A DNA stretch of 64,000 nt from Bacteroidia bacterium (GTDB taxonomy: Bacteria; Bacteroidota; Bacteroidia; Bacteroidales; CAJPTX01): NCBI GenBank assembly GCA_905373475.1, contig CAJPTC010000007.1:16852-80851 (forward strand), in the 5' to 3' direction. Positions 6,162 to 58,040 of the stretch are shown here, one piece after another. How positions within the stretch are numbered: position 1 is the first letter of the stretch; every line of letters starts with the position of its first letter. The notes below the pieces were generated by a model. That model searched no databases. It had not been told where the DNA came from and saw nothing but the letters and a program-made list of their open reading frames with translations. The position numbers and the translations under genes are program-made.

Positions 6162-6180
6162 AAACCAACTGTCAATTTCT

Positions 6181-6188
6181 TAACTTTG
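6181..6188 (+). promoter_or_regulatory. Candidate Bacteroidota -7 promoter box (TAACTTTG) upstream of the cheR operon
   Basis: Matches TAnnTTTG and lies 48 nt upstream of the GTG at 6237. A TTG sits about 23 nt further upstream. The 6-fixed-base motif occurs by chance about once per 4 kb per strand, so this is weak. Confidence 0.3.
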
Positions 6189-6236
6189 TTGAAGACCTAG
6201 TCTGCTACTAGGTTCGTGTTATAAGCGGAAGAGGAA

Positions 6237-7076
6237 GTGGAAAATTCGGATGACTTATTCCGGTTCATAACGGCACTCAGGGCGTATACTTCCTACGACT
6301 TGAGCGATTATTCCGATCGCTCACTGCGCCGAAGACTCTACAAAGTCCTTGACGATCAGAGAATTACAATAGACGAACTGCTTGCTCAACTTGCCAAAGA
6401 TCCCAGTTACGGCGAGCAGCTGGTCGAGGCGATTACGGTTAATACTAGCGAACTGTTCCGCGATCCTTCCGTCTGGCTTCTTTTGCGTTCGCGCATTTAT
6501 CCCAAATTCAAGGCGCAAACATATCTCAATGTTTGGCATGCTGGCTGTTCTATGGGGCAGGAGGTCTATTCAAACTTGATGTTGCTCAATGAACTCGGAC
6601 TATACGAGAAAGCCCGTGTCTATGCGAGCGACATCAATGCAAAGATTATACAAGCCGCTCAAAAAGGTGAGTATCGTTATCGCTTTAATCTCTCTTACCT
6701 AGATAATTTCGATCTGGTAATCAATACGAACCCTCTGAATTATGAAGAAAAACTCTCGATACCCTATTCAAAATATTTCAATATAGACGAAGCAAGAGAC
6801 CTTATAACGATTCATCCCTCGTTAAGACAGAAACCAACCTTTAGATGGAATGATCTCGTTAAAGGAGTTAACCCCTTCTTTGTCCGATATGATGTCATTT
6901 TTTGTCGAAATGTCTTGATTTACTTTAACGCTTCGCTACAGAATCGCCTCTTTGAGATGTTTTATCGTAATTTATACCCAGGAGGCATTTTGGTGCTCGG
7001 TGCTCATGAATCTATTATTGGCTCATGGGCTAACAAATTTGAGAGGTTGTCGCAGGTGTATGTGCGTAAAGATTGA
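6237..7076 (+). CDS. cheR: CheR-type protein-glutamate O-methyltransferase
   Basis: 279 aa. CheR motifs ELFRD, VWHAGCSMGQEVYS (SAM pocket), YASDIN, DVIFCRNVLIYFN, LYPGGILVLGAHES. GTG start preceded by a purine-rich stretch. Confidence 0.85.
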   Translation: MENSDDLFRFITALRAYTSYDLSDYSDRSLRRRLYKVLDDQRITIDELLAQLAKDPSYGEQLVEAITVNTSELFRDPSVWLLLRSRIYPKFKAQTYLNVWHAGCSMGQEVYSNLMLLNELGLYEKARVYASDINAKIIQAAQKGEYRYRFNLSYLDNFDLVINTNPLNYEEKLSIPYSKYFNIDEARDLITIHPSLRQKPTFRWNDLVKGVNPFFVRYDVIFCRNVLIYFNASLQNRLFEMFYRNLYPGGILVLGAHESIIGSWANKFERLSQVYVRKD

Positions 7077-9019
7077 AGCTGATGAAGGAAGTGTTTTTAC
7101 GCGTAGTTGAGGCACTACGTAGTTTGTGGGTTAGGGTGCGAGTCCGTCTCCTGACCATGGGGAGTCTCATCGTATTCCTCGGAATATGTCTCTTCATCTT
7201 CGAGCGCATGGTCTATTCCGAATCGCATGAGCAGCTGAGTAGAACCCTAGAGAGTTTTGCAGAGAAATTTTCTCAAACGCTCGAAATGCTGGATCTTGAC
7301 TTGAAGAATTTGGACACCGTAGAACATGCACGTTTACGTTCTCTATTCCGAGATCCTATGTACGGCGATACGGGGTATCCGTTTGTTGTACAGATGACAG
7401 GCAAGATTGATTTCCATTTCTTCCGCGACGGAGATCGCCTTTCGCGCGAGGTCATGGATCAGATGGCTTCGGCTCCTAGCCGACGAGGGAGTCTACGGAT
7501 CAATTTCGACGGTGGGCAGACACAAGAACGTGAGATAATATTTACCTACGTTCGCGAACTAGATTGTTTTCTTGCTATTGAAGTCTCCGATGCTGTGTTT
7601 GATGCGACTTTGAACGGAATTCGTATATACAGCTGGGCATTATTTATTTTTGGTAGTCTTCTGGTGTGGCTAATGCTGAGCTATTATACGCATCGCGAAA
7701 CTCGATTCCTCAAGTCTTTGCGCTCGGACTTGTCGGCTCTTGCAGAAGGAATCTTGCCAGAGCAGGTTGCATTTCGAGGACAAAAAGAGGTAACGCAGAT
7801 TGTAGATGCTCTCAAACGTCTTATAGATGGACTCTCAAATACTACTGCTTTCGTAAAACATTTGGCTATTAACGATCTTACCCAAGAATATACTCCTATG
7901 GGAGTAAGAGATGAATTGGGGAATTCGCTTCTTGAGTTAAGATCTGCTCTACAGAAGCAAGAAATTGAGGCAGGACATATAAAGGAAGAGGAACGAATCC
8001 GGAGTTGGAGTAATGAAGGGTTGGCTGAATTTGCAAAGTTGCTTCGTGAAAATAGTAACGATATCGCTCTCTTGGCAGACGTCATCTTAAAACGTATAGT
8101 AAACTATTTGGAGGCTATGCAAGGCGCATTGTACATGGCAGAGGAACGCAAAACAGGGACTGTGTTGCATTTGGTCTCGGCATTTGCTTACAATAGAAAG
8201 AAGTTTCTCAAGCAGGATCTTAAGTTGGGTGAAGGGTTGGTTGGAACGTGTGCTATTGAGCGGGAATTGGTACACATAGACGTTTTACCTCCTGAGTATT
8301 GTGAAATCACCTCGGGAATAGGCAATGTCCCTCCTAAAGAACTATTACTGGTACCGTTGAAAACAGATGACGCTCTATTAGGAGTTCTGGAACTGGCTTC
8401 CTTAAAAGGTTTTGCTCCCTATATGGTTGCTTTCGCACAACTACTCTCGGTAAGTATTGCGCAAACTTTGCAGCAAGTACAGACCAATCAGCGCACAGCA
8501 GAGTTGCTCAAACAGTCGCAGGAACAGCGTGAAGCGATGCGTTCGCAGGAAGAGGAAATGCGCCAGAATCTAGAAGAGATGCAAGCAACGCAAGAAGAAA
8601 TGACTCGCAGAACGCAGGAATATGAGGTACTTTCCTACGTACTAGAGCAAGCTACTTTCTATGCCGAATTCTCGGAGGAGGGACTGCTCTTACAAAGCAA
8701 TCAAAAATTAAAAGAGTTCTTGCATCAACTCGGATTTGCAGAACAAACAGAATTACGAATTCTAGATCTTGTTGAGGTGGAAAATAGCGTTACTGAACAG
8801 CACGCAGAGACCTTGACCTCCAGTTGGAAGAATATTCTTGCAGGAGTTTCGCAAACCTTTGTGTTGAGATTCAGGACAGAAAAGCCTGCACTGCTTTACG
8901 CCGCATTCACCTCACTTGCACGTGACGGAGGGAGTCGGGTTTACATGTTAGCACAAGATATTGCGAATCTCTTCCCTAATGGCGAAAAACAACCAACGAA
9001 ACCAGAGGAGTATAGGTAG
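7073..9019 (+). CDS. Membrane receptor: small extracytoplasmic domain, HAMP-like linker, GAF, Glu/Gln-rich coil, PAS-like C-terminus; no catalytic output
   Basis: 648 aa with two TM helices (TM2 is IYSWALFIFGSLLVWLMLSYY). GAF core GEGLVGTCAIE...LLLVPL...GVLELAS. Coil LLKQSQEQREAMRSQEEEMRQNLEEMQATQEEM. The TTG at 7073 overlaps the cheR stop; ATG at 7082 is an alternative start. Confidence 0.8.
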   Translation: MKLMKEVFLRVVEALRSLWVRVRVRLLTMGSLIVFLGICLFIFERMVYSESHEQLSRTLESFAEKFSQTLEMLDLDLKNLDTVEHARLRSLFRDPMYGDTGYPFVVQMTGKIDFHFFRDGDRLSREVMDQMASAPSRRGSLRINFDGGQTQEREIIFTYVRELDCFLAIEVSDAVFDATLNGIRIYSWALFIFGSLLVWLMLSYYTHRETRFLKSLRSDLSALAEGILPEQVAFRGQKEVTQIVDALKRLIDGLSNTTAFVKHLAINDLTQEYTPMGVRDELGNSLLELRSALQKQEIEAGHIKEEERIRSWSNEGLAEFAKLLRENSNDIALLADVILKRIVNYLEAMQGALYMAEERKTGTVLHLVSAFAYNRKKFLKQDLKLGEGLVGTCAIERELVHIDVLPPEYCEITSGIGNVPPKELLLVPLKTDDALLGVLELASLKGFAPYMVAFAQLLSVSIAQTLQQVQTNQRTAELLKQSQEQREAMRSQEEEMRQNLEEMQATQEEMTRRTQEYEVLSYVLEQATFYAEFSEEGLLLQSNQKLKEFLHQLGFAEQTELRILDLVEVENSVTEQHAETLTSSWKNILAGVSQTFVLRFRTEKPALLYAAFTSLARDGGSRVYMLAQDIANLFPNGEKQPTKPEEYR

Positions 9020-9021
9020 AG

Positions 9022-9864
9022 ATGTTTACACCCAATGTCCAAGATTTGAGCATCAAGGAGATACGAGCTATTATTGCTGCGATCCGAGTTGGACATGGTG
9101 ACGATTTCTCTGATTTCAATTTAGGCGTTTTGAGCAGGCGTGTGGCAATAGCCATGAATCGCTTGGGCGTTAGGCAAACAGAGGTGTTCTGCCAGATGCT
9201 ACAAGGCGGCGATCTGCTATTCTACAAGCGCCTTCTTGCCGAAATAACTCCCCCTACTACAGAACTTTTGCGAGATCCCTCTTTTTGGCTACATCTCCGT
9301 GAAGACGTCCTCCCAAGCTTGAACTCTAAAAATGAGAAGCTAAAAATCTTACAAGCTGCATACGACACTGGAGAGGAATTGTATTCTTTGCTAATTGTTC
9401 TAGAAGAGCTGAAGCTACGTGCAGATGTAGAGCTCACCTCTGTTTATTTAAGCGAAGATACGCTGACGCAAATCCGTAATTGTAAGCTACCATCTCGGAG
9501 ACAAGAGGTAGATAAGGCAAATTTTGCGCGCTTTGAAGCTTCTGTCCCGTACGAGCAGTATATTTCAAGTGTAGCCGATACGGTACAGTTTCGTAGAGAA
9601 TTGCTTGCCGATGTGCATTTCTTGCGGCTTGCTCCCGTTTTTAACTTACCAGCAGACCCGAAGTACCATCTTATTCTTTGTCGCAATCAATTCCTTTATT
9701 TTAATCCGCAGCTAGGTATCAGAAATATGCAGAATCTGTTTGACCGACTCCGTGGTGGCGGAATACTTGTTCTAGGGGCAAAAGAATGCTTGGATAGTTA
9801 TCAGAATGGTAGTACATTTACAGTACTCAACCGCGAGGAAAGTATATATAGAAAAAGAATATAG
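9022..9864 (+). CDS. Second, more divergent CheR-like methyltransferase
   Basis: 280 aa. LLRDPSFW, QAAYDTGEELYS (compare AA-x-x-TGEE-YS in enteric CheR), LILCRNQFLYFN, LRGGGILVLGAKE. Starts 2 nt after the previous stop. Confidence 0.75.
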   Translation: MFTPNVQDLSIKEIRAIIAAIRVGHGDDFSDFNLGVLSRRVAIAMNRLGVRQTEVFCQMLQGGDLLFYKRLLAEITPPTTELLRDPSFWLHLREDVLPSLNSKNEKLKILQAAYDTGEELYSLLIVLEELKLRADVELTSVYLSEDTLTQIRNCKLPSRRQEVDKANFARFEASVPYEQYISSVADTVQFRRELLADVHFLRLAPVFNLPADPKYHLILCRNQFLYFNPQLGIRNMQNLFDRLRGGGILVLGAKECLDSYQNGSTFTVLNREESIYRKRI

Positions 9865-10433
9865 TGACAGGACGTTATAAGGCAGTCGTTATAGGCGGCT
9901 CTGCGGGTAGTTTTCAGGTTGTGGTGCGAATATTACAGTCGCTCCCAACCTCTTTTGCTTTGCCTGTCATTTTGTGTCTACACCGCTTGAAACACGTCCG
10001 TTCGGGCTTCGATGAAGCCCTGTCTCTCCGTTCTTCGATTCCCGTAATAGAACCAAACGATAAAGAGACCATACGTTCTGGAATTGCATATTTAGCGCCT
10101 TCAAATTACCACCTATATGTTGAACTCGGAAATCGTTTTTCTCTCTCTACAGAGGAGGTCGTAAATCATTCGCGCCCCTCAATAGATCTGACTTTTTTTT
10201 CCGTGGCTCGCGTGTACCGCGAACATGCATTAGGTATAATTCTCTCAGGGGCAAATAGAGATGGCGCTTTGGGCTTGCAACGTCTGAAAAAAATGGGTGG
10301 TACTGCAATTGTGCAAGATCCGAGAGAGTGCGAAGTCCGTACAATGACTGAAGCCTCCTTGCAACTTACGACTGTCGATGCCATTCTAACAACAGAGGGA
10401 ATAATAAAATATTTGGAAGATTTGAGGTTGTAA
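9864..10433 (+). CDS. cheB: CheB-type methylesterase/deamidase, catalytic domain only (no receiver domain)
   Basis: 189 aa. VVIGGSAGS (nucleophile Ser region), CLHRLKH (His region), GANRDGALGL (Asp region). The GTG start overlaps the upstream TAG by 1 nt (TAGTG). Confidence 0.8.
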   Translation: MTGRYKAVVIGGSAGSFQVVVRILQSLPTSFALPVILCLHRLKHVRSGFDEALSLRSSIPVIEPNDKETIRSGIAYLAPSNYHLYVELGNRFSLSTEEVVNHSRPSIDLTFFSVARVYREHALGIILSGANRDGALGLQRLKKMGGTAIVQDPRECEVRTMTEASLQLTTVDAILTTEGIIKYLEDLRL

Positions 10434-10436
10434 CTA

Positions 10437-11222
10437 ATGAGTAAGAGCGAAGTGAACCGTTTGCGTAGCATTCGGCAATATCTATTGATTGGACTCTCTT
10501 TCCTATTTAGCGGCGGGATAGCCCTGCTTGCCTACAGCCCCAGTAATGGCTTGACTGTAAGTTACGGATTCATAATAGCATTGGCTTTAGGATTGAATGT
10601 CTTGCTGATTTACCAAATTCAAGTCATTTGGACGGAGATAAACCGACGCGTGCAGAGCGAGAAGATGATTCAGGCTCTGATGACAAAACGCGAAGAATTG
10701 GAAAAAGAATTAAGAGCCTTATATGCTGAAAAAGAACAAGAGAACGTGGATACGCGGAATGCAGATCAATTGCTAGAAGACCTCGTCTCTGAAGTTCAAG
10801 GAAGTGAATTCCAGACTTATGTCGATTCATATTTCCAAATTGTTGGCAAGGAGTGGCAACTTATGCAAGGTTTGCTCTTTATGCGTCAAGAAGACGATGT
10901 CTTTCGGAAGGTTGCTCACTATGCTTACTATAGCAATGAATCGGATCTCCAGTTTGTGAGTGGCGAAACTCTTTTAGGGCAAGTTGTAAAAGAGGGGAAA
11001 CCGCTGTACATCGATCATGTTGAAAGCGAAAGCATTGTGGTTGCTTCGGGAACGGGAAGCTGTATGCCTTGTAGCGTATATATAGTCCCTTTCGCAGAAC
11101 GGGAGAAAAAGTGCAATGGTGTTTTTGAGTTGGCTTTTGTAAAGCCTTTAGACGAAAAGGAGCGCGAGTTGCTAGCCCGCTTTACAGAACGCATATCTGT
11201 TGAAATAGAAAAGAAGGCGTAA
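10437..11222 (+). CDS. Small membrane protein with coiled coil and GAF domain
   Basis: 261 aa. Two N-terminal hydrophobic helices. Coil KREELEKELRALYAEKEQE. GAF-like C-terminal half (LLGQVVKEGKPLYID...VYIVPF...GVFELAF). Confidence 0.7.
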   Translation: MSKSEVNRLRSIRQYLLIGLSFLFSGGIALLAYSPSNGLTVSYGFIIALALGLNVLLIYQIQVIWTEINRRVQSEKMIQALMTKREELEKELRALYAEKEQENVDTRNADQLLEDLVSEVQGSEFQTYVDSYFQIVGKEWQLMQGLLFMRQEDDVFRKVAHYAYYSNESDLQFVSGETLLGQVVKEGKPLYIDHVESESIVVASGTGSCMPCSVYIVPFAEREKKCNGVFELAFVKPLDEKERELLARFTERISVEIEKKA

Positions 11223-13856
11223 ATGAAACATGTTACGATATGGTCAGAATTAAAATTCTGGCATTGGCGTTTACGTAGCCGAGAGATTGGGGTAGCGCTT
11301 CTGCTTTTTTGTCTGAGTTTCTTCCTTGTAATACTCAGCTGGATTCTAGCGGCAGATGCTCTCAATGGAGAATTTACAATGGCTTCGCTCTTCTCCTTGC
11401 ATCTTCGTCAGCCTATTTTATTCCTTACAGATTTTTTTCCCGTATTTATAGGTTTTGGTTACCTATTCCTTCAGTCGCGTAATACAACTCTTATTATCGA
11501 ATTGGAGAAAGAGAATGAGGCACAGAGCCAGAGCATTGAAGAAAAGGCTGATTTTGCCATGGCTATCGGCGATGGGAAATACAATGCCACTCTTGCGATA
11601 CAAGATCTTGAGAACGACCGTTTGGGACGATCCTTACTCCGAATGCGCGACAACCTGTTGGCGAATACTCAAAAGGAAAATGAGCATTCGTGGGTTACGC
11701 GCGGGAAAGATGAAGTGGCTTACGTCCTTCGTATGTATACCAATTTGCAAGAGTTAGGCTATGAAGTCTTGAAAAAGTTGGTTGCTTACATAAATGTGGT
11801 ACAAGGAGGACTTTTCCTGTATGACGAAGAGAAACAGAGGCTTTACGGTCTTGCTACCTACGCATATAACCGCGAAAAACTAAATCATCTGGAGTTTGCA
11901 TTGGGTGAAGGTCTCGTTGGACAATGTGCCTACGAGCGTGGAATTATCCATCGCACGGAAATCCCTGATGATTATTTTACAATCACATCGGGAATTTTAG
12001 GTGATGCGCGTCCGAAGAGTATTCTTCTTGTACCTCTAATCACCGATGAACGTCTACAAGGGGTTATTGAATTTGCATCGCTGAGTGAAGATTTTAACGA
12101 GCGCGACATACACTTTCTAGAAGAGGTCGGTGAGACCGTAGCGCGCGTCATTTTCAACTTGCGTATAAGTCAAAAGACAGAGGCTTTGTTGCATGAAGCG
12201 CAACAAATGACTCGCGAGTTACGGACGAACGAGGAACTTTTGCGACAGAATGCTGAGGAGATGCAGAAAACGCACGAAGAGCTAGAGCGTTCAAATGTCC
12301 AGCTAGAAGCCAAAATTACAGAAGCCGAGAATGCACAAAAACGACTTCATTCTCTCTTAGAAAATGCGAGCGAAGTAATTACGATATATGATAGAACTCA
12401 GAAAATAACCTACATCAGTCCCTCTGTCACGAAAATCTTGGGCTATACGCCGCAAGAGATGATAGACGGAAAGGATCGTGAGCGTCTGACACAGGAAGGT
12501 GTCCGAATTTTGCATAAAACATTCGAAAGTCTGATAGAGAACCCTCACGTCCCCGTCACTTATCAATACATCTTCATGAAAAAAGATGGCGTGAAGGTTT
12601 CGATGGAGGTTACTGGTCGGAATTTATTGGAAGACCCAGCTATACGCGGCATCATACTCAATTCGCGAGACATAACCGAACGTGTGCGCGCCGAGAAAGA
12701 GGAGCGAATGAAGAGTAAGATGCAGTCGCTCTCGGAGAATTCCGTAGATATGATCGTCCGTCTGAATACGGAAGGACAGTTCTTTTATGCTAACCCCATT
12801 GTCTCTCGCTTCTTTGGAGTCACCGTTAGTGAGGTTGTCGATAAGAATCTACAGGAGGTCGCAATGCCTGAAGTTCTAAGAGCGAGTATTCAAGATGCAT
12901 TGCACGAGGTCATACAAAGTCAAACAAAGTGGGAACACGAAGTCTCGATAGAGCGAGAGGGAGAGCAGTTGATTCTAAAGTTGTTAGCAATTCCAGAATT
13001 TGAAGACGGAGTACTTGAGACGATCCTATTAGTAGGGCATGATGTGACCGAGGCCAAACGAATTGAAAATGTAATCCAAGAGAAGAACCATAAAATCCAA
13101 GAGAGTATCAACTATGCAAAGCGCATACAATCGTCTATACTGCCCGATACGAAACTGATTCAGCAATATCTCCCAAAGTCCTTTATGTACTATGCTCCGC
13201 GTGATGTGGTCAGCGGAGACTTCCCCTGGTTTTTTGTAAAAGATGACTACCTTTACATAGCCGCGGTTGATTGTACAGGGCATGGTGTGCCAGGGGCGCT
13301 GCTATCCTTTATCGGCTTCTTTACGTTAAACAACGTAGTGGATCACGATGCGTCTTATAGTGCGGGTAAAGTGCTGGATTTGTTGCATGCTGGGGTTAGG
13401 AAAACATTACGTCAGGAACGCGCAGAGGCGGATGCGCGCGATGGGATGGACATCGCACTGTGTAAGATAGACTTGAAGCGTATGCATTTGGAGTTTGCAG
13501 GAGCACACCGTCCCTTGTATCTAGTTCGAGATGCCGAACTGGAGGAACTAAAGGGGGATAGGCGTGCTATTGGCGGTATTCCGAATCCGCGGAAACCAGA
13601 AGGTGAGTTTACAAACTATAGCATTGATCTGCATACTGGCGACAGAATCTTTTTCTTCTCAGACGGACTCCCTGATCAGCAGGGCGGCGAGAATGGCATG
13701 AAGAAATATAGTCCACAACATATACGCGAAGTCTTGCTTGAGAATCGGAAACTCTCGATGCCACGTTTAGCTCAATTTATAGAGGAAGATTTCTTACGCC
13801 ATCGAGGCGACTGGCGACAGATGGATGACGTCTTGTTGATTGGTATAGAGTTTTAG
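11223..13856 (+). CDS. Membrane GAF-coil-PAS-PAS-PP2C (SpoIIE-type) Ser/Thr phosphatase, SiaA-like role
   Basis: 877 aa. The ATG abuts the previous TAA. GAF core GEGLVGQCAYE...ILLVPL...GVIEFAS. Coil LLHEAQQMTRELRTNEELLRQNAEEMQKTHEEL. Two PAS-like segments. PP2C motifs VSGDFPWF, AAVDCTGHGVPGALLS, DGMDIAL, FFFSDGLPDQ, DDVLLIGIEF. Confidence 0.85.
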   Translation: MKHVTIWSELKFWHWRLRSREIGVALLLFCLSFFLVILSWILAADALNGEFTMASLFSLHLRQPILFLTDFFPVFIGFGYLFLQSRNTTLIIELEKENEAQSQSIEEKADFAMAIGDGKYNATLAIQDLENDRLGRSLLRMRDNLLANTQKENEHSWVTRGKDEVAYVLRMYTNLQELGYEVLKKLVAYINVVQGGLFLYDEEKQRLYGLATYAYNREKLNHLEFALGEGLVGQCAYERGIIHRTEIPDDYFTITSGILGDARPKSILLVPLITDERLQGVIEFASLSEDFNERDIHFLEEVGETVARVIFNLRISQKTEALLHEAQQMTRELRTNEELLRQNAEEMQKTHEELERSNVQLEAKITEAENAQKRLHSLLENASEVITIYDRTQKITYISPSVTKILGYTPQEMIDGKDRERLTQEGVRILHKTFESLIENPHVPVTYQYIFMKKDGVKVSMEVTGRNLLEDPAIRGIILNSRDITERVRAEKEERMKSKMQSLSENSVDMIVRLNTEGQFFYANPIVSRFFGVTVSEVVDKNLQEVAMPEVLRASIQDALHEVIQSQTKWEHEVSIEREGEQLILKLLAIPEFEDGVLETILLVGHDVTEAKRIENVIQEKNHKIQESINYAKRIQSSILPDTKLIQQYLPKSFMYYAPRDVVSGDFPWFFVKDDYLYIAAVDCTGHGVPGALLSFIGFFTLNNVVDHDASYSAGKVLDLLHAGVRKTLRQERAEADARDGMDIALCKIDLKRMHLEFAGAHRPLYLVRDAELEELKGDRRAIGGIPNPRKPEGEFTNYSIDLHTGDRIFFFSDGLPDQQGGENGMKKYSPQHIREVLLENRKLSMPRLAQFIEEDFLRHRGDWRQMDDVLLIGIEF

Positions 13857-13886
13857 TTCAGGCGAGTATCGAAAGTAAGAGTAGAG

Positions 13887-14456
13887 ATGGCGGAGGCGAA
13901 ACTGTGCAGCTATTTGCAATATGTAGAACGTGAGTACCAACGTTTAGGAGGCGGCGAGGTGATGCTTGCTTACGAGGGCGAGGTGTCGCAGTCGTTAATT
14001 TTGTCATTAACGGGGCTAATAGAGCTTGAAATCGTAAAGTCTGGAGAAGATGCTAAGCTCCAGAAACAGCTGTTCCATACGCTAGTAGAGGGACTACAAA
14101 ATATCATGAAACATGCTGACCCTATTGAAGGGGAGCGGATGACGATGTTTAGTGGTCGTGGTGTCGTTATGTTAATACGTACGCCAGTATGTTATTATGT
14201 CTTGGTTGGTAACATTGTCTTAAGCAGTCGTGTTCCTGACATGCGCGCGCGTCTTGACACGCTAAAAAATGCGAACGATGATGAACTCAAGGCTATGCAC
14301 AGAGCCAGCTTGCGTGGGAACGAGATTTCTGAAAAAGGAGGTGCTGGTTTGGGATTAATCGATATGGCGCGCAAGGCGCAAGATATCGATTATAGGTTTG
14401 AGGTAATAAATGAGGAACGCCAATTCTACCTCCTAGAGGTAAAGTTGAAGCGTTAG
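13887..14456 (+). CDS. SiaB-like small protein kinase (GHKL/anti-sigma-kinase-like fold)
   Basis: 189 aa. C-terminal ATP-lid-like motif GGAGLGLIDMARKA. Size and position (between a PP2C gene and a DUF1987-like gene) match SiaB-family kinases. Confidence 0.65.
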   Translation: MAEAKLCSYLQYVEREYQRLGGGEVMLAYEGEVSQSLILSLTGLIELEIVKSGEDAKLQKQLFHTLVEGLQNIMKHADPIEGERMTMFSGRGVVMLIRTPVCYYVLVGNIVLSSRVPDMRARLDTLKNANDDELKAMHRASLRGNEISEKGGAGLGLIDMARKAQDIDYRFEVINEERQFYLLEVKLKR

Positions 14457-14490
14457 TTATAAACGAAATAAAAAGGAGAGAGAAAGGAAG

Positions 14491-14874
14491 ATGGAGGTTA
14501 TCAAAATACAGGGGACAGACGATACTCCTACGGTGATTCTAGAGGCTGACAAGGGACTATTTGAGATATCTGGTCGCTCGCTGCCAGAAGATGTAACGGC
14601 GTTTTATGCCCCAGTTTTAGCATGGCTCAAAGACTATGCTGCAAATCCTAACCCTAAGACGGTATTTACCTTCAAGCTTGTGTATTTTAATACGGCAAGT
14701 TCGAAGCTTCTACTCGATATCTTGGTGAAGCTGGAAGAGATTCATAGTGACGGGAAGGACGTCTTGATTAAATGGTGTTATCCTGAAGACGACGAAGATA
14801 TGAAAGAGGCAGGGGAAGAGTATGCTGAAATTGTTGACGTCCCCTTTGAACAAGTGCCATACGACGTCGTATAG
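14491..14874 (+). CDS. SiaC-like (DUF1987) regulatory phosphoprotein
   Basis: 127 aa. N-terminal I-x-G-T-x-x-T-P pattern. YFNTASSK motif with Thr at residue 68 by my count (codon 14692-14694). Acidic C-terminus. Confidence 0.72.
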   Translation: MEVIKIQGTDDTPTVILEADKGLFEISGRSLPEDVTAFYAPVLAWLKDYAANPNPKTVFTFKLVYFNTASSKLLLDILVKLEEIHSDGKDVLIKWCYPEDDEDMKEAGEEYAEIVDVPFEQVPYDVV

Positions 14875-14957
14875 AATACATAATGCAGGTTATTTGTGCG
14901 CATAGCTAGAAGAGAAAGAGCTGGATAAAGAGTGCGTTGATATTTGGTTAGTGTTTT

Positions 14958-17900
14958 ATGAGTGAAGAAATTTTAAAGGCCTTGATGCAACTCTTCGCCA
15001 TTATTGCGAAGCAGGACGAAGGGCTTGGAGAAAGTGAGCGCGAATATGTTGAAGCGTTCTTAAAGCAGCAAATCAACGCAGAGGCTGTTGCCGAATATTT
15101 AGCCTTGTTTGACGGATATGTCAGCGACGATAAAGGGGGAAGTGGGAGTAAACTTACCTCTGTAAAAGATTCTGTCCGTATCCTAGGGATCTGCAAGAAG
15201 ATCAATAAAACACTAACGCAGAAACAAAAAGTCGTTGTTCTAGTACGTCTTTTTGAATTGGTCAGTGCAGAAGGGAAATTCAGTGAACAACGTATGGCTA
15301 TTATCAATACCGTTTCAGAGGTATTTAAGGTAGAGCCTGAGGAGTTTGCGGATATCGAGACCTTCGTTCTGAGTAAGGATTTACTGACATTAACGCGCCC
15401 AACTATACTGATTATACACGCGAACGAACTTTGTGAACACGAGCACGACGATGCGGCGCACTGCAAGGAAATTCGTGTAGATTCTCTAGATCTGCCTTTG
15501 GCAATCCTACGCATAAAATCGGAAGATCTTTATTTTCTGCGCTATACAGGACATGAAGATCTTTACCTCAATGGTTTGTCAATACATAATCGGCGGATTT
15601 ACCTCTTTGCCAATGGGAGTAGTATAAAATTGCCGAAGGGGAAGCCCATCTATTACACAGATGTGGTCTCGCATTTTATGGTCGATTTGAGTTTGACCCC
15701 TATTTCGTACGTTGTCGATAATATCTCCTACCGTTTCCCAAATGGTGCTTTAGGGCTGAGAAATATTTCCTTCTCTGAAGAACACGGTCGATTAGTGGGC
15801 ATCATGGGAGCGAGCGGAGCAGGGAAAACGACGCTCTTAAATGTTCTATCTGGAGCTTCAACACCTTCGGAAGGCGAAGTAAGAATCAATGGTCTAGACC
15901 TGTATAAAGACAAGGAACATCTTGAAGGAACAATTGGAGTTATCCCACAAGACGACCTATTGATTGAGGAGCTGACGGTTTTTCAGAATTTGTATTACAG
16001 CGCAAAACTCTGTTTCCGCGATAAAAGTGAGAAAGAGCTTTGTGAATTAGTAGATCGTACGCTTGCCAGTCTCGGGCTATTGGAGCGTAAAGATCTTAAG
16101 GTTGGATCGCCTCTGAACAAGATGATCTCTGGTGGACAACGAAAGCGTCTCAATATTGCGCTTGAGTTGATAAGAGAACCATCTATTCTATTTGTAGACG
16201 AACCCACCTCGGGATTGTCGTCGCGCGATTCGGAGAATGTAATGGATTTGCTCCGAGAGTTGACGCTCAAGGGGAAACTTATCTTTGTTGTAATACACCA
16301 GCCATCATCGGAAATCTATAAGATGTTCGATGATATGCTGATTCTCGATACTGGAGGCTATTTAGTCTATTGGGGCAATCCTGTCGAAGCCGTAATGTAT
16401 TTCAAAAAGGCTGATGCACAGGTTAATAGTGATGTTGGAGAGTGTCCGACTTGTGGGAATGTGAATCCCGAATTGATTTTCAATATCATAGAGTCTCATG
16501 TTGTAGACGAGTTTGGTCGTTATACGCCTAAAAGAAAGGTGCCTCCGCAGCGCTGGGAAGAGATCTTTAAGGAAGCAAAACCGCCTGTACATGTAAATGA
16601 GGAGTCTGTGCCTCCGCCTAAGTCCTTGAATATTCCTTCTCGATTTAGGCAGTTCCTGATCTACACTGCGCGTGACTTTCGCTCTAAGATTAGCAATACG
16701 CAATATATCGTATTGAATTTGTTAGAGACGCCAGTGTTAGCTTTTATATTGGCGTATGTAATACGATATATTCCCGATCCGAACTCTTCTGTATATGTTT
16801 TCAGAGAGAATGAGAACATACCTATATATATTTTCATGTCACTAATCGTCGCTCTATTTATCGGACTGACTGTTAGTGCTGAAGAAATATTCAAGGATCG
16901 GAAGATATTAAAACGGGAGCAGTACTTAAACCTGAGCCGTACCTCTTATCTTTTCAGTAAAATATTCATTCTACTGGTTCTCTCTGCCATACAAACTTTG
17001 TCTTTTGTACTGATCGCCAATAGCATATTAGCGCTCCGGGGGTTGAACATGGAGTATTGGCTGATTTTGTTTTCAACCGCCGTTTGTGCCAACCTGATAG
17101 GATTGAATATCTCAGCTACGTTTAATAGCGCTGTTACCATATACATAGTCATCCCGCTCTTGATGATCCCTATGATGGTACTCTCGGGGGCAATGTTTTC
17201 ATTTGAAAAGTTAAATCGTGCCGTTGGTAGCTTCGATCGTGTTCCCATAATTGCCGAATTTATGCCTACTAAATGGGGGTACGAGGCTCTCGTTGTGCTC
17301 CAGTTTAAGGACAACGAGTTCCAGCGCCACTTCTATGATATGGAAAAAGTGGAGCGTAATGCAAACTATAAGACGGTCTATCTGCTCCCAGAATTACAAA
17401 AGCGCCTAGAGTATTGTATTGATAATTGGGGGCTGCGCGATAGTGCTAAAGTCGCAGAAAAGATGCGAGACGCATTGGCTGTTCTGCATCGCAGCCTCCA
17501 GCGTGAGCATGATGTAGAAGCTGTGGAAATTCCGTATGACTATCTCTCGGCTCTGAATTACGACAGTGTCTCTGAAGAAGCGCTCTATGAAACGGTTGGT
17601 TACCTAGAACAGTTGCAAGAGAAGTACGCGAAAATATTCGGCGAAAAGAATAAACAACGGGATGCAATTGTTTCACATCTCATGGCAACAGAACCTCAGT
17701 TGTATGAAGCGAAGCGTGCTGCATACCATAATGAAAGTGTTGCAGACTTGGCACAGAAAGTGTTTGAAAAGAATAAAATCTTACAGTTCAAGGATCAACT
17801 CGTACAGCAGTATGACCCTATTTACCGTGACCCCATCCCTAATTCCTATTTTGATATTGGAGCGCATTTTTTAGCGCCCCGTAAACACTTTATGGGGCAT

Positions 17901-18041
17901 TATTTCGATACCTACTGGTTCGATCTTACGATTCTGTGGGTAATGAGTGCTTTCCTTTATTTGTCTCTGCATTTGGAGTTGCTGAGACGGATTGGAAATC
18001 TTTTTGCAATTTTGCGTAGAGGCTTCAAAAAACAACGATAA
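14958..18041 (+). CDS. Fused ABC ATPase + ABC-2/ABCG-like permease with TerB-like N-terminal domain
   Basis: 1027 aa. TerB-like helices (LFAIIAKQDEGLGESEREYVEAFL; LVRLFELVSAEGKFSEQRMAII). Walker A GASGAGKTTLLN, signature ISGGQRKRLNIA, Walker B ILFVDEPTSGL. Multi-TM permease plus a helical C-terminal extension. Confidence 0.85.
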   Translation: MSEEILKALMQLFAIIAKQDEGLGESEREYVEAFLKQQINAEAVAEYLALFDGYVSDDKGGSGSKLTSVKDSVRILGICKKINKTLTQKQKVVVLVRLFELVSAEGKFSEQRMAIINTVSEVFKVEPEEFADIETFVLSKDLLTLTRPTILIIHANELCEHEHDDAAHCKEIRVDSLDLPLAILRIKSEDLYFLRYTGHEDLYLNGLSIHNRRIYLFANGSSIKLPKGKPIYYTDVVSHFMVDLSLTPISYVVDNISYRFPNGALGLRNISFSEEHGRLVGIMGASGAGKTTLLNVLSGASTPSEGEVRINGLDLYKDKEHLEGTIGVIPQDDLLIEELTVFQNLYYSAKLCFRDKSEKELCELVDRTLASLGLLERKDLKVGSPLNKMISGGQRKRLNIALELIREPSILFVDEPTSGLSSRDSENVMDLLRELTLKGKLIFVVIHQPSSEIYKMFDDMLILDTGGYLVYWGNPVEAVMYFKKADAQVNSDVGECPTCGNVNPELIFNIIESHVVDEFGRYTPKRKVPPQRWEEIFKEAKPPVHVNEESVPPPKSLNIPSRFRQFLIYTARDFRSKISNTQYIVLNLLETPVLAFILAYVIRYIPDPNSSVYVFRENENIPIYIFMSLIVALFIGLTVSAEEIFKDRKILKREQYLNLSRTSYLFSKIFILLVLSAIQTLSFVLIANSILALRGLNMEYWLILFSTAVCANLIGLNISATFNSAVTIYIVIPLLMIPMMVLSGAMFSFEKLNRAVGSFDRVPIIAEFMPTKWGYEALVVLQFKDNEFQRHFYDMEKVERNANYKTVYLLPELQKRLEYCIDNWGLRDSAKVAEKMRDALAVLHRSLQREHDVEAVEIPYDYLSALNYDSVSEEALYETVGYLEQLQEKYAKIFGEKNKQRDAIVSHLMATEPQLYEAKRAAYHNESVADLAQKVFEKNKILQFKDQLVQQYDPIYRDPIPNSYFDIGAHFLAPRKHFMGHYFDTYWFDLTILWVMSAFLYLSLHLELLRRIGNLFAILRRGFKKQR

Positions 18042-18097
18042 GAGTGGCGTGTTACCATTCGTTTGGAACATCGTTTGTGGTTAGAATAAAGAGGACT

Positions 18098-19021
18098 ATG
18101 AGAGTAGAAAAAACGATAATTTATGCTTTTGCATTGGCAGGTCTTCTATTAGGAGGATGTCAGTGCTCGCGGACTGGTCCAGATGTATCTCAGGATTTCA
18201 ATATACCAGATTCGCTTAAAGACAAGCAAGAGGTTGAGTTGTCTGAGGGGGTCACCGAGAAAATGGTTGAAAATATATCTTCTCCTGTTGAGACAGCTGC
18301 GCTTATCAAACGCCTGAAAGTACCGTTCAATAAGGACTTCCTAATCTCTACCGACGTAGCAGATCATCTCAATACGAATTTTGAAAAGGCGTTGGGACTT
18401 GGACTGTATGGAACAGATTTGGGGTATCTCAATATGTACGAGAAAACCTCGAGTGTTCTGAACTATATTTCTTCTGTAAAGTCGCTTGCCGATGGAATTC
18501 AAGTGGGGCAGTTCTTTGATTTTGCTACGTTAAAACGCCTTGCTTCCAACAATGAGAATCTTGACTCTCTGATTTATATCTCGCAGCAGAGTTACAACAA
18601 GATTGATCGGTATCTCCGTACTACCAATCGTGCTTCTTTGAGTGTCGTCATTGTAACAGGTGTGTGGATTGAGGGGATGTATCTGTCTACGCGCGTTGCT
18701 CAGATTACAAAGAACCGGAAAATGGAGGAGAGTGTGGCAGATCAGAAAGTGGTTTTGGCAACCTTAATACCCATTTTACGCGTATACGAACGGGATCAGG
18801 ATATCAAAGGCTTGGCAGACCGCCTAGAGTCTTTACGAGAGTTGTACGACGAAGTCCGGATTACGTATGAACAGGGAACGCCTGAAACTAGAATAGTAGA
18901 TGGTAAATTGGTGGTAGAGCAAAAGGATAAGCAAATTGTTGATTATTCGCCCGAATTGATGCAACAGCTTATGAACGAGATAATCTCGATACGTACTGAA
19001 TTGATAACACCTAAGGGGTAA
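18098..19021 (+). CDS. Lipoprotein of unknown function
   Basis: Start moved to ATG 18098, where MRVEKTIIYAFALAGLLLGGC gives a signal peptide plus lipobox Cys. The remainder looks all-helical. No family recognised. Confidence 0.7.
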   Translation: MRVEKTIIYAFALAGLLLGGCQCSRTGPDVSQDFNIPDSLKDKQEVELSEGVTEKMVENISSPVETAALIKRLKVPFNKDFLISTDVADHLNTNFEKALGLGLYGTDLGYLNMYEKTSSVLNYISSVKSLADGIQVGQFFDFATLKRLASNNENLDSLIYISQQSYNKIDRYLRTTNRASLSVVIVTGVWIEGMYLSTRVAQITKNRKMEESVADQKVVLATLIPILRVYERDQDIKGLADRLESLRELYDEVRITYEQGTPETRIVDGKLVVEQKDKQIVDYSPELMQQLMNEIISIRTELITPKG

Positions 19022-19027
19022 AAGATT

Positions 19028-19471
19028 ATGAAACGAGTATTGTTAGCGGCGGTTGTGCTGCTCTCTTTGATATTTGCTCCAGGGCTGGCTTTCGGTCAGT
19101 CAGAAGATGAACTTTTGGATATTTGTGGCGCCTTGGCTGGTTCTGAGGCAACTTATCTGCGCGATTTTAAGATTCGTCTGGATGCGGCGGATCCGCCACC
19201 TATTCAACGCTATCCGATAGTCTTGAAGAAGGGGAATCGTTATCGTTTTTCAATAGCGAGCTCGAAGGACTTTGAGGGTACGATGAAGTTGGAATTGTTT
19301 GATAGTAACCGATTGATGGCTACAACAAATAATCCAGCTACGGGGCAAGATTTCCCGTCCTTTGATTACATCTGTACAAAAACAGGCGCGTATCACCTCT
19401 TCTTCTCATTTAAGGATGGGAAAGCAGGCATGGGGGTCGGAGTACTATCCCTATTAGATGGGGATAATTAA
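19028..19471 (+). CDS. Small secreted protein of unknown function
   Basis: 147 aa. Signal peptide MKRVLLAAVVLLSLIFAPGLAFGQ. Starts 6 nt after the previous stop. Beta-rich composition. Confidence 0.65.
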   Translation: MKRVLLAAVVLLSLIFAPGLAFGQSEDELLDICGALAGSEATYLRDFKIRLDAADPPPIQRYPIVLKKGNRYRFSIASSKDFEGTMKLELFDSNRLMATTNNPATGQDFPSFDYICTKTGAYHLFFSFKDGKAGMGVGVLSLLDGDN

Positions 19472-19482
19472 AGGATTCTTAT

Positions 19483-40058: not shown

Positions 40059-42365
40059 TTAGACTTCAAATGAAAGTTTTATGATTTTGTATACTTTGCC
40101 TGTATGGTTCTTGAGCGGGAGATAGAATTCTAAAAGCTGTAACTCCGTACCATTGATATTCTGTTGCATGGAAATTCGTTTGCTTTTTCCCGAACGCACA
40201 TCGCGCCAAAAGTCGTTGTACTTTGCCCTATTCCATCCTACTATTTGGCAACCCTCCGAAAAATGGGAATGCAGTACCTCCTCGCGCGTCACCTGTAGCC
40301 TATCCAGATAGCTCTGACTCGCATCCGTTGCATAGCCATCGAGGTCATATTCCACATAGAATAATGCGGCAGACAGCGCTGTAAACAAACTCTCGTTCTC
40401 CTCTTTCTTTCGGTCGGCTTCCTCCTGCGTAGCTTTTATCTCTTCGAGGTTCTGTCGGAGTTCTTCGTCTTGTGCCTTCAGTTCTTCCGACTGTTCTTGC
40501 GCTTGCGCCAGAAGCTGTTTGGTATTCATACCCACCTGCACAGTAAAGAGGCTAGCGGCTACGTATACCGACAAATTGTTGAGAAACTCAATAACGTGCG
40601 GCGGGAAGATTTTGAACGATGCGAGCTCGAGCACGGCAATGGCTTCTCCCTCATGCAAAAGAGGAACAATCAGTATGCAGTTCGGTCGCGCTTGCCCTAC
40701 GCCTGCCATAATGGCGGAATAGCTCTCGGGAATCTCAGTCAGAAGGATGTGCTTTTTTTCCATCGCACAAGAACCGATGAGCCCCTCGCCCATTCTGAAT
40801 TTTGCGGTAAGGTAACGTTTCTCGCCCCATGCAAAAGAGACCTTCATATTGTACTCCTCTTCTTGCCGACGCTGGTGGCGATCGTCGTCGCGTAGGTATA
40901 GTGCCCCCATCTGCGCATCAACGAAATGCGCAATTTGAAAAAGGAAGTTCTCGCACAACGAATCCAAATGATTGGAATTTTGGCGAAGGAGTTCGCTAAA
41001 GGTTGCCAGCCCGTGGTTAACCCAAGCGCGGTTCTTGTTCTCAATCTCGCGTTTTTCTTCTTCAGCTTTTGCAGCTCGCAGACTATTGCGGACAGCGACT
41101 AACGACTTACCCAGCGTGTCATTCTCGCCCAGTAGAGTGATATCCTGCGACAAATCGCCATTACCTATGCTCTGCGCCAGTCGGTTCATGTGACGCAAGC
41201 CGTTCAGGAGCTTATTCATTGCCACACTCATCCACTCCATTTCATCGGCAGAATGGATCTTGAAGACTTTGTCAGACTCTATATCGCCATGTGCCAAGGT
41301 ATTGAGCATCTGCGTCATCTGTAGAATGGGACGAGTGATAAGCGATGATATTTTAAGAAGCGCTAGCCCTGTGATAATCATGGCAATAAAACCAACAAGA
41401 ATCGATATCTTCAAGCTATTGTCTGCACTGTGCGTTATTACACTTAGCGGTACATAGATCCCCATGGCCCAGTTAGAATGTGTATTTGTGACAGAAATGG
41501 GGGTGATGTATACGTAATAATCCTGTTCCGTACGCGGATCTTGATAGATGAAAGAGGACGTTATCCCCTTTCGGACTTTATCTTCCAGATTTTCGTTATA
41601 TGCTACATTACCAAAGAGCTGTTCCACGCTCTTATTGAGCATAGAGTCTAGCGGATGCGAAGCAATACGCGCCTTGCCCGAAAGGAGAAAAGAGATACTC
41701 CCCTCAAAAGGCTTTATTTCCCGAATAAAATCCTGAATCCAGTTCAGGGTTACATCTAACCCCACCAAGCCTGCAAAGCGAGAATTTTTGCGAATGGGAG
41801 CTGCCACCGTGGTCATCATCCTTCGGTTCTGCGAGTTTTCGCTGGTGGTATCGAGGTACGGATCCCAGAGGTCGGGAGCATTTATGCGCCTAAACTCGGC
41901 ATAAGGGGCGGGGTCACCATTTAATGACAATTCGGTGGTTACACTGCGCAGAATCTTGTTATCATCGTAGTACAAATAGCGCGCTAGTCGTCCATACTCT
42001 TTGGGGTAATTGGGGCGGAATTGCGAATACTCGTAGCTATCCCAAAAGGCAGTAATCTCGCGGTGATTCTTGTAGGAGTTTTGCAACATCTCTAGAAAGA
42101 GGGGTTGCCATTCTGTAGAGTCTAGAGTTGTGAATGAACCAAATGCTTCGGCTAGCGAGGTAGCAATGCCCATATATTCTTCAAAGCGACTCCGCACTTC
42201 AAAAGCCGACTTCTCGGCACTGAGCTTTACTTTAGAGTAGGCTTCGTCTTTCAGGGTTCGCGAAGTGCTATTGACGATATAGCCGATAGAAATAACATAG
42301 ATAACAAGGGCTAGCAAAAGGACAAAAAGGACAATTTTGTTCCGTATGCTAATATAGATGCGCAT
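40059..42365 (-). CDS. Membrane receptor: Cache-like domain, HAMP, GAF, Glu/Gln-rich coil, PAS-like C-terminus; paralogue of 7073..9019
   Basis: Start set to ATG 42365 (MRIYISIRNK followed by a TM helix); the longer ORF would overlap the upstream gene. About 300-aa extracytoplasmic domain. HAMP ITRPILQMTQMLNTLAHGD. GAF GEGLIGSCAMEKK...ILIVPL...AVLELAS. Coil LLAQAQEQSEELKAQDEELRQNLEEIKATQEE. Confidence 0.85.
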   Translation of the reverse strand: MRIYISIRNKIVLFVLLLALVIYVISIGYIVNSTSRTLKDEAYSKVKLSAEKSAFEVRSRFEEYMGIATSLAEAFGSFTTLDSTEWQPLFLEMLQNSYKNHREITAFWDSYEYSQFRPNYPKEYGRLARYLYYDDNKILRSVTTELSLNGDPAPYAEFRRINAPDLWDPYLDTTSENSQNRRMMTTVAAPIRKNSRFAGLVGLDVTLNWIQDFIREIKPFEGSISFLLSGKARIASHPLDSMLNKSVEQLFGNVAYNENLEDKVRKGITSSFIYQDPRTEQDYYVYITPISVTNTHSNWAMGIYVPLSVITHSADNSLKISILVGFIAMIITGLALLKISSLITRPILQMTQMLNTLAHGDIESDKVFKIHSADEMEWMSVAMNKLLNGLRHMNRLAQSIGNGDLSQDITLLGENDTLGKSLVAVRNSLRAAKAEEEKREIENKNRAWVNHGLATFSELLRQNSNHLDSLCENFLFQIAHFVDAQMGALYLRDDDRHQRRQEEEYNMKVSFAWGEKRYLTAKFRMGEGLIGSCAMEKKHILLTEIPESYSAIMAGVGQARPNCILIVPLLHEGEAIAVLELASFKIFPPHVIEFLNNLSVYVAASLFTVQVGMNTKQLLAQAQEQSEELKAQDEELRQNLEEIKATQEEADRKKEENESLFTALSAALFYVEYDLDGYATDASQSYLDRLQVTREEVLHSHFSEGCQIVGWNRAKYNDFWRDVRSGKSKRISMQQNINGTELQLLEFYLPLKNHTGKVYKIIKLSFEV

Positions 42366-42474
42366 GTTGAAACGAGTTATAGAGAAGGACGTGTCGTTAT
42401 AATATATCCGCAATACCGTGGCTAATTGTCCACTACCGTAGCGTGTAGTCTGTTTTTTTGTACTATAGAATGTG

Positions 42475-48711: not shown

Positions 48712-48732
48712 TCTATACTAGGTTGTTATTAC

Positions 48733-48768
48733 AGCACGGGCGTGGAAATTCCGCGTCCGTGCTTTTTA
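48733..48768 (+). terminator. Rho-independent terminator
   Basis: 12-bp stem AGCACGGGCGTG / CGCGTCCGTGCT (two G-U pairs), 7-nt loop, then TTTTT. Confidence 0.75.
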
Positions 48769-48870
48769 TATATATATCATGTCTTAACCAAAACCTCCCG
48801 TTAAATTATTTACCTTTTTCATAAATTGCGATCAGTTTTCTATGTTTATCAACTAATAAATACTGATTGC

Positions 48871-58014: not shown

Positions 58015-58040
58015 ACACACTCCTCGCGAAAAGAGACAAA

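Follow-up and report, generated by a model that had tools for sequence, protein, structure and literature searches.

Why would the enzymes that adapt chemoreceptors be encoded beside a protein phosphatase? This question is raised by a gene cluster on contig CAJPTC010000007.1 of a Bacteroidia bacterium (assembly GCA_905373475.1), of which we analysed the 64,000 nucleotides from position 16,852 to position 80,851 (hereafter the window, whose numbering is used below). The cluster encodes two proteins of the CheR family and one of the CheB family, together with GAF-containing receptors, a PP2C phosphatase and relatives of SiaB and SiaC. Bacterial chemotaxis owes its molecular memory, in a textbook mechanism, to the reversible methylation of glutamates. 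To our knowledge, such methylation has been demonstrated almost solely for methyl-accepting chemotaxis proteins (MCPs) coupled to CheA. On balance, we lean towards reading the cluster as a PP2C/SiaB/SiaC switch of the methyl-accepting coiled coil (MAC) type, adapted by methylation and probably controlling an ABC exporter. The argument starts from what is established, that is gene content, domain identities, catalytic residues, a coil motif and conserved linkage.

All eight open reading frames (ORFs) described in the initial annotation were found where it had placed them, on one strand, with junctions of -4, +2, -1, +3, 0, +30 and +34 nt. Its reading of the first five junctions is exact (a 4-nt overlap at 7073/7076, 2 nt at 9019/9022, TAGTG at 9864, 3 nt at 10433/10437 and TAAATG at 11222/11223), and the final two gaps are of 30 and 34 nt. 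The proposed eight-gene operon stands as regards genes and packing, but the unit is longer and runs on into an ABC exporter and two envelope proteins. The 11 genes follow each other in the order CheR1, p2, CheR2, CheB, p5, p6, SiaB, SiaC, d1, d2, d3. The parts to which the text refers are:

6237..7076, + strand: CheR1, with CheR_N and CheR domains, S-adenosylmethionine (SAM) methyltransferase with intact catalytic motifs (Pfam, structure alignment).
7073..9019, + strand: receptor p2, with two transmembrane (TM) segments, a possibly Cache-like periplasmic domain, HAMP-like linker(s), GAF, a coil and a PAS-like C-terminus (Pfam, orthologue alignment).
8486..8626, + strand: MAC-like coiled coil of p2, aa 472-518, LLKQSQEQREAMRSQEEEMRQNLEEMQATQEEMTRR, candidate methylation segment (hidden Markov model (HMM) of the coil, 3.5e-19).
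9022..9864, + strand: CheR2, degenerate CheR paralogue, CheB-proximal (Pfam CheR 4e-17).
9864..10433, + strand: receiver-less CheB methylesterase/deamidase, 189 aa (CheB_methylest 1e-46).
10437..11222, + strand: p5, a small protein with two TM segments, a charged linker and GAF (GAF_2 1.3e-06).
11223..13856, + strand: p6, 877 aa, with two TM segments, HAMP-like region, GAF, coil, PAS, PAS and SiaA-like PP2C (Pfam, NCBIfam, PDB).
12165..12305, + strand: MAC-like coiled coil of p6, aa 315-361, LLHEAQQMTRELRTNEELLRQNAEEMQKTHEELERSN (coil HMM 9.3e-19).
13887..14456, + strand: p7, SiaB-family Ser/Thr kinase (DUF6272; NF038262).
14491..14874, + strand: p8, SiaC-family phosphoprotein (DUF1987), with Thr68 in FNTASS (Pfam SiaC).
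14958..18041, + strand: d1, 1027 aa, with TerB, FHA-like beta domain, ABC ATPase and ABC-2 permease (Pfam, AlphaFold2/Foldseek).
18044..19021, + strand: d2, probable lipoprotein with lipobox LLGGC, no Pfam family (sequence).
19028..19471, + strand: d3, small secreted protein with signal peptide, no Pfam family (sequence).
40059..42530, - strand: third receptor, with dCache_1, HAMP, GAF, coil DEELRQNLEEIKATQEE and a PAS-like region (Pfam, coil HMM 8.3e-15).

In Pfam and NCBIfam searches, the products of 6237..7076, 9022..9864 and 9864..10433 do fall in the CheR and CheB families, and the assignments of CheR, CheR′ (here CheR2), receiver (REC)-less CheB, GAF, PAS, PP2C, SiaB and SiaC all hold. 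The Cache and HAMP domains announced for 7073..9019 are sub-threshold there (E=0.07 for Cache, E=0.03 for HAMP at aa 213-255) but become significant in orthologues and in the third receptor. In the 75-nt gap 5′ of CheR1 (6161-6237), TAACTTTG fits the Bacteroidota -7 promoter consensus TAnnTTTG; scans of the cluster region for sigma-70 promoters and terminators gave results no better than chance.

Is the association of these genes meaningful? Related loci, referred to below by L numbers, were collected with three anchors: CheB (52 loci), SiaC (80 loci) and a profile of the REC-less CheB (the best 80 of at least 560 genomes). According to the last scan, at least 560 species genomes carry this type of CheB. 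Receiver-less cheB with cheR recurs beside GAF-PP2C genes across Bacteroidales and Cytophagales. CheB is encoded upstream of SiaC in 55 of the 56 SiaC-anchored loci with enough upstream DNA; the remaining one, L127, has just 6.6 kb of upstream DNA, keeps the coil described below and is uninformative. Conversely, at CheB-anchored loci a GAF gene directly follows CheB in 62/63 and a PP2C gene lies downstream in 61/63. Taken together, these counts place the gene arrangement far beyond chance. The co-linear cluster is present in well over 100 species of Bacteroidales and Cytophagales. The Cytophagales Chryseolinea and Fulvivirga maritima (complete genome) have the same cluster with one CheR only. 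We also considered that the CheR/CheB adjacency might reflect coincidence or inheritance among close kin; this was rejected, the order being kept at 46-60% protein identity across orders. The genes for CheR, CheR′ and REC-less CheB are thus dedicated to, and co-inherited with, those for the GAF receptor, PP2C, SiaB and SiaC, in support of the wiring proposed in the initial annotation.

The d1-d3 genes follow SiaC in 48/48 loci with enough DNA, as well as in Chryseolinea and Fulvivirga; in L015 the block is inverted, d1-d3 still follow SiaC and the blocks are still adjacent. Since synteny 5′ of the cluster is limited to close relatives and d1-d3 are constant, the ends of the cluster are placed at ~6237–19471, and the functional unit predicted from gene order would comprise the 11 genes listed above. 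A serpin-family gene (19483-20739, + strand) starts 11 nt 3′ of d3, and homologues also lie 3′ of d3 in L055, L062, L116 and L130.

These comparisons bear on whether the locus could be two uncoupled neighbours, a CheR/CheB/TM-GAF adaptation module and a PP2C-SiaB-SiaC-ABC exporter module. The two do separate or invert (L015, one CheB-anchored locus, the minimal modules, L127), TerB-ABC is found alone in L054, and stand-alone minimal modules of the type CheR-CheR′-CheB-TMGAF exist between housekeeping genes. Nevertheless, co-linearity is kept in >100 species of two orders, inverted blocks remain adjacent, and the PP2C protein p6 has the same GAF-coil cassette as p2, the receptor encoded between the two CheR genes. 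We consider an uncoupled arrangement very improbable.

Are the methylation enzymes functional? CheR1 matches Pfam CheR at 5.9e-35, with a weak CheR_N match, and its alignment to the B. subtilis and P. aeruginosa CheR structures retains FRD, WHAGCSMGQEVYS, ASDIN and CRNVLIYF. The SAM/catalytic motifs (motif I/post-I loop, ribose-binding acidic residue, CRNV) are present in 26/26 orthologues. Judging from these residues, CheR1 looks active, as a catalytically intact enzyme would. The second CheR-like protein is indeed more divergent, as had been noted: its CheR match is at 4e-17 and its motifs are degenerate, motif I reading AAYDTGEE and the ribose-binding Asp of 'TDID' being replaced (SVYLS). 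None of the 26 CheR2 orthologues compared retains motif I, the ribose-binding Asp or CRNV, and this protein is always the CheB-proximal copy. CheR2 is probably an inactive, conserved pseudo-methyltransferase, presumably with the role of an adaptor. In the Chlorobiota loci L043-L045, CheR2 is the sole CheR beside CheB.

The CheB_methylest match (1e-46) covers the whole profile, and the protein consists of the catalytic domain alone. Its description as receiver-less is borne out: at 189 aa it is too short for a REC domain, and the preceding gene stops at the CheB start codon. Aligned to 3sft and 1chd, it keeps the contexts of the catalytic Ser (GGSAGS), His (LHRL) and Asp (RDGA), and 47-48 orthologues share them. 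No neighbour of CheB is more constant than p5. A p5-type protein follows CheB in 47/51 loci in one count and in 62/63 in another, and also lies 3′ of CheB in the stand-alone modules. The conserved coil is absent from p5. We speculate that p5 serves as a scaffold or regulator, perhaps standing in for the missing REC domain.

What would CheR1 and CheB act on? As had been reported, the cluster receptors lack, by Pfam, an MCP signalling domain and a histidine kinase. Receptor p2 has TM segments at 22-50 and 183-203 and a GAF domain at aa 333-467 (Pfam, 8.8e-10). In the alignment of its orthologues, the sensor and C-terminal flanks diverge, the C-terminus aligning with PAS, and a coil is near-invariant across Bacteroidales and Chryseolinea. 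This coil, QEEEMRQNMEELQATQEE, stands right after GAF in the p2 and p6 families (consensus …LLxQSQxQxEEMxxQEEEMRQNMEELQATQEE…) and is present in every p6 orthologue aligned. Searching the window with a coil HMM gave exactly three carriers, p2, p6 and the third receptor (Pfam: dCache_1, HAMP and GAF), all of the same receptor family. Some 25 kb separate the third receptor, on the opposite strand, from the cluster; by analogy with MCPs, one CheR/CheB set may serve several scattered receptors. Directly upstream of it, a DUF6976 gene (42475-43521, - strand) overlaps its annotated start and may be co-transcribed with it.

Up to five [E/Q][E/Q] pairs are spaced in exact heptads along the coil (columns 17-18, 24-25, 31-32, 38-39 and 45-46), and a core hydrophobic residue comes directly after every pair. 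The geometry of the pairs is that of MCP methylation sites. There is a second point of comparison. A "methyl-accepting coiled coil" class of proteins was reportedly predicted by Wuichet & Zhulin in 2010. The central heptad of our coil, MEELQAT, and the MAC repeat (NEELQST)x10 of the cyanobacterial locus L051 both obey the scheme x-E-E-L-x-[AS]-T, and the coil here can be viewed as a short form of the MAC coil. L051 (280-4538) is a classical MAC locus: a REC-less CheB and a CheR are encoded there together with a REC-Trans_reg_C-Hpt-REC protein, and they are followed by a PAS_10/PAS protein with ~10 NEELQST/NEELETT heptads, the contig ending before any output domain. The initial annotation had placed methylation on the GAF receptors; within these, the likelier element is the near-invariant coil C-terminal to GAF, with its Glu pairs in heptad register, and not the GAF domain itself. 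On the strength of the alignments, the coil is a strong candidate for the methyl-acceptor of p2, p6 and the third receptor. A weak MCPsignal match on the coil (E=0.043) was discarded as below significance, and a PF28175 match as a LegC2C7 coiled-coil artefact.

An exhaustive search with a coil-only profile gave 3263 representative clusters, of which 47 were sampled for domain content. GAF and PAS were both present in 44/47, often with repeated coil–PAS units, and Cache or HAMP in several. HisKA, HATPase_c and GGDEF were absent from the 25 commonest families of these 47 proteins, and the only enzymatic output among them was SpoIIE. Judged by its domain content, the coil family would therefore consist of output-less receptors and a PP2C version. 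Two coil receptors are directly preceded by a gene for the deamidase CheD (L017 5172-5711, L010 6897-7460, L154); in the clade of these loci there is no CheR gene beside CheB. CheD representing a third family of MCP-modifying enzymes, its presence beside coil receptors supports the coil receptor model. PP2C sensors without coil occur near minimal or split modules, at L043 72-3383 (Y_Y_Y-SpoIIE, 1103 aa) and L015 2184-4937 (HAMP-PAS-SpoIIE-REC, 917 aa).

Several observations weigh against the coil as substrate. It fits only half of the MCP consensus EExxA[ST]. Among 244 coil instances, no E/Q interchange was seen in the central pairs, where Glu is 93-97% invariant, and columns 38/39 accept Asp, so that a test of E/Q versus D substitution gave no methylation or deamidation signature at the central pairs. 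No coil protein was found within 10 kb either side of the minimal CheR-CheR′-CheB-TMGAF modules. Finally, the secondary accounts of the MAC class describe it as predicted and uncharacterised, and contain no methylation data for any MAC protein. The coil motif could be a docking or structural element instead of a substrate.

Two other substrates have to be considered. The first is p5 itself, or the GAF subfamily: CheR and CheB would act on, or be regulated by, p5 or the shared GAF domain, and the coil would be a generic signalling helix. The constancy of p5 next to CheB, including in stand-alone modules, speaks for this, as does the fact that all three GAF domains of the cluster share the motifs GEGLxGQ, PxxY..SGLG..P and ElASF. 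However, the family alignment of p5 has no conserved Glu/Gln pair beyond the general GAF motifs, its TM-to-GAF linker is a variable, K/E-rich stretch of low complexity, and we know of no case in which CheR/CheB modify a globular GAF fold. This possibility appears quite unlikely.

The second is a set of canonical MCPs, elsewhere in the genome or adjoining the cluster, which would be the real substrates of CheR1 and REC-less CheB, the GAF/coil proteins and PP2C switch lying downstream in place of CheA and CheW. In the window itself, the initial annotation had seen no CheA, CheW, MCP or CheY, and this was confirmed: no ORF of 100 aa or more matched CheA, CheW, MCPsignal or Response_reg, nor was an Hpt or H-kinase_dim domain found in the window ORFs. 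To extend the search, the Pfam-verified CheA, CheW, MCP and CheD proteins of a Rhizobiales locus were used as tblastn queries against the window and 212 loci (3.15 Mb). The CheA, CheW and MCP queries had no match in the window, and neither CheA nor CheW was matched within 7-10 kb either side in >210 loci, the positive control L219 being matched. MCPs with a canonical hairpin tip and without CheA or CheW nearby were however found right after d3 in L105 (15065-16897), L118 (15131-16897) and L218 (10001-11830). Others lie near the minimal modules L037–L042 (for instance L038 12927-14795, - strand, and L042 14332-16440, - strand), none with CheA or CheW nearby, and a further one, equally isolated, in L060, from a close relative of the window organism (18266-20161, - strand). 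A canonical MCP occurs near about half of the minimal modules, and Bacteroidota commonly encode MCPs, which as a rule are orphans without a neighbouring CheA or CheW. These findings speak for MCPs as substrates, and so do the invariant coil Glu pairs and the minimal modules without coil proteins nearby.

On the other side, an MCP lies within 7-10 kb of the locus in only about 8/213 loci, and MCPs as substrates would leave unexplained the conservation of the coil, its heptad geometry and its kinship to the L051 MAC repeat. Further evidence comes from Ca. Bacteroides periocalifornicus, which has the full 11-gene cluster on a single contig (L062). In the RAST table of this genome, another contig, with flanking genes whose best matches are in P. 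gingivalis, carries CheB (382 aa, with REC), CheD, CheR, CheW, CheA, CheY and an MCP (PMC6275135 supplement). It is the sole genome of our set with a documented canonical system, and that system has its own CheR, REC-CheB and CheD, which makes the enzymes of the cluster extra, dedicated paralogues. About 80% of MAC-bearing species are reported to have additional Che systems, in agreement with Ca. B. periocalifornicus. The same organism has no flagellar genes, and its motility was inferred from the che genes (PMC6275135). Its RAST labels for members of the cluster are 'Fe-S oxidoreductase' for SiaC and 'sigma factor-like phosphatase' for PP2C (PMC6275135). Weighing both sides, we regard canonical MCPs as unlikely substrates of CheR1 and CheB, though as the main rival to the coil.

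Because of this canonical cluster, the lineage is not free of chemosensory genes. The idea of a host without Che system is safe for the 64 kb, but unsafe beyond, a related genome with the same cluster having a canonical Che cluster. The other trait proposed for the host, a type IX secretion system (T9SS), was confirmed by genes of the PorP/SprF, CHU_C and Por_Secre_tail families in the window. At 47176-61586 stands a series of genes for T9SS cargo proteins carrying Por_Secre_tail; among these are an S8 subtilase of 3062 aa, which has GEVED and InlB-like repeats, and a C10 (streptopain-like) peptidase of 1146 aa that contains an I69 inhibitor domain of its own. A DDE transposase (DDE_5 / DDE_Tnp_1; 61797-63260, - strand) is encoded close to where the window ends.

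We return to the MAC-type switch and to what lies downstream of the coil receptors. Pfam recognises GAF, two PAS and SpoIIE in p6, and the SiaA C-terminal model of NCBIfam matches at 4e-49. The best PDB match of its PP2C domain is that of SiaA (6k4e, 2e-37), and GDF, DCTGHG, SDG and DDV, the motifs that bind the metal, are conserved. The kinase reaches 131.5 bits with NF038262 (cut-off 85), its match to the chain of SiaB in PDB 6kko is at 3e-6, and GAGLG is conserved. SiaC is matched by Pfam at 6.6e-42 (142 bits) and aligns to 6kko_C at 2.5e-16; the motif YFNTASS, with Thr68, is present in 25/27 orthologues. For SiaA, SiaB and SiaC alike, the scores stayed below the equivalog-level cut-offs of NCBIfam. 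With these residues conserved, as are those of CheB and CheR1, the enzymes look active: CheB, CheR1, the p6 PP2C and SiaB, with SiaC Thr68 in place. In P. aeruginosa, SiaB phosphorylates T68, after which SiaC cannot bind the stalk helices of SiaD (PMC8457831). No GGDEF domain or SiaD was found in window ORFs of at least 100 aa. DUF1987 proteins have been suggested to modulate adjacent proteins (PMC8457831).

Which protein is then adjacent to SiaC? Pfam finds TerB, ABC_tran and ABC2_membrane in d1. In AlphaFold2 models (pLDDT 87-90), its N-terminus comprises a helical bundle, corresponding to TerB, and, at aa ~150-232, a beta domain, for which the top 50 Foldseek matches in the PDB are all FHA (probability ~1.0, TM-score 0.45-0.54, E >=9e-3). 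S188, N205-G206 and G220 of this domain are conserved. It is a lead from the model that d1 might read the phospho-Thr of SiaC~P. The d2 and d3 proteins co-travel with d1; the true start of d2 is probably an internal Met near 18098. We consider d1 the probable target or output of the switch. Against this role, the assignment stems from conserved adjacency, Pfam FHA was not detected in d1, the canonical GR of GR...SxxH...NG is not conserved in its beta domain, and TerB-ABC occurs without the switch in L054.

How does such a system compare with known ones? In secondary descriptions, MAC proteins hold both receptor and histidine-kinase functions, MAC1 being fused to CheB and CheR and MAC2 having separate CheB and CheR genes (MiST3). 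Our cluster resembles MAC2 by a REC-less CheB and a separate CheR encoded beside non-MCP sensors, and MAC in general by a coil with heptad-spaced Glu-Glu pairs of the form x-E-E-L-x-[AS]-T. It differs, as far as these secondary descriptions of MAC and MAC2 go, in that MAC is kinase-linked whereas p2 has no output and p6 has PP2C. It also has a coil of fixed length, 3-5 heptads, placed after GAF, and adds a pseudo-CheR, a TM-GAF protein, SiaB/SiaC and an ABC exporter. The novelty suggested at the outset must accordingly be qualified: the architecture has no kinase output, but a precedent exists in the MAC class.

With SiaABCD of P. aeruginosa, the cluster shares a membrane SiaA-like PP2C, a SiaB-family kinase and a SiaC with Thr68, in the same gene order. 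In contrast, there is no SiaD diguanylate cyclase or GGDEF in the window and a TerB/FHA-like ABC exporter adjoins instead; the phosphatase has an inserted GAF-coil-PAS-PAS input, and CheR and CheB are attached. The canonical MCP-CheA-CheW system has in common the CheR and CheB families, a helical stretch of the receptor that exposes Glu pairs at heptad intervals, and several receptors, some unlinked, with probably one shared enzyme set. Here, however, the cluster receptors lack the MCP hairpin, CheA, CheW and CheY are missing from the cluster and within 7-10 kb in >210 loci, and the output is a Ser/Thr dephosphorylation. CheB being without REC, it cannot take feedback from CheA. As to the exporter, Mycobacterium tuberculosis Rv1747 is an FHA-regulated ABC-2/ABCG-type exporter. 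What we take to be common to both is an N-terminal regulatory module, with a fold that in d1 is FHA-like by model comparison, before an ABC ATPase and ABC-2 permease, and a linkage to Ser/Thr phospho-signalling. Presumably they differ in that d1 has a single FHA-like domain after TerB, without the conserved GR, and would receive its phospho-signal from SiaB/SiaC and not from a Hanks kinase.

From these data, we infer where methylation occurs, in which direction the switch is regulated, what p5 and CheR2 do, and that the exporter is the target. The cluster would specify a dedicated, CheA-independent sensory pathway combining MAC-type coil receptors with a SiaABC-like partner switch. Stimuli would be sensed by the periplasmic Cache-like and the cytoplasmic GAF/PAS modules of p2, of the third receptor (40-42.5 kb) and of p6 itself. 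The signal would pass through HAMP and GAF to the coil, then to PAS and, in p6, to PP2C. The phosphatase would strip the phosphate that the SiaB-like kinase adds to Thr68 of the SiaC-like protein. The phospho-state of SiaC would set its partner binding, the best candidate partner being the d1 exporter with its lipoprotein and secreted protein. An active CheR1 would methylate the exposed, heptad-spaced Glu pairs of the coil and the REC-less CheB would demethylate them. Once these charges are neutralised, the signalling helix would be poised differently between on and off, giving adaptation or gain control as in MCPs. Within the CheB/CheR machinery, CheR2 and p5 may be subunits that scaffold or regulate, and p5 might take the place of REC.

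A broader proposal, which we put forward tentatively and as less probable than the switch itself, is that CheR/CheB adaptation, assisted by the pseudo-CheR and the TM-GAF subunit, has been rewired in Bacteroidota to a third kind of output, neither CheA nor histidine kinase. MAC-type receptors, and possibly orphan MCPs, would set PP2C, and the phospho-state of SiaC would gate the exporter via its TerB/FHA-like module, providing memory-bearing sensing in non-flagellated bacteria. If this is true, the memory device of chemotaxis tunes a Ser/Thr phosphatase partner switch and, probably through it, an envelope exporter. The uncharacterised MAC class would gain its first testable function, and SiaC/DUF1987 a target besides diguanylate cyclase. 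The carriers are hundreds of gut, rumen, oral and environmental species of Bacteroidota, among them a periodontitis-associated bacterium and the cultured Fulvivirga maritima and Perlabentimonas gracilis. For non-flagellated bacteria, the cluster offers a lead on orphan MCPs and on CheR and CheB encoded outside CheA/CheW operons.

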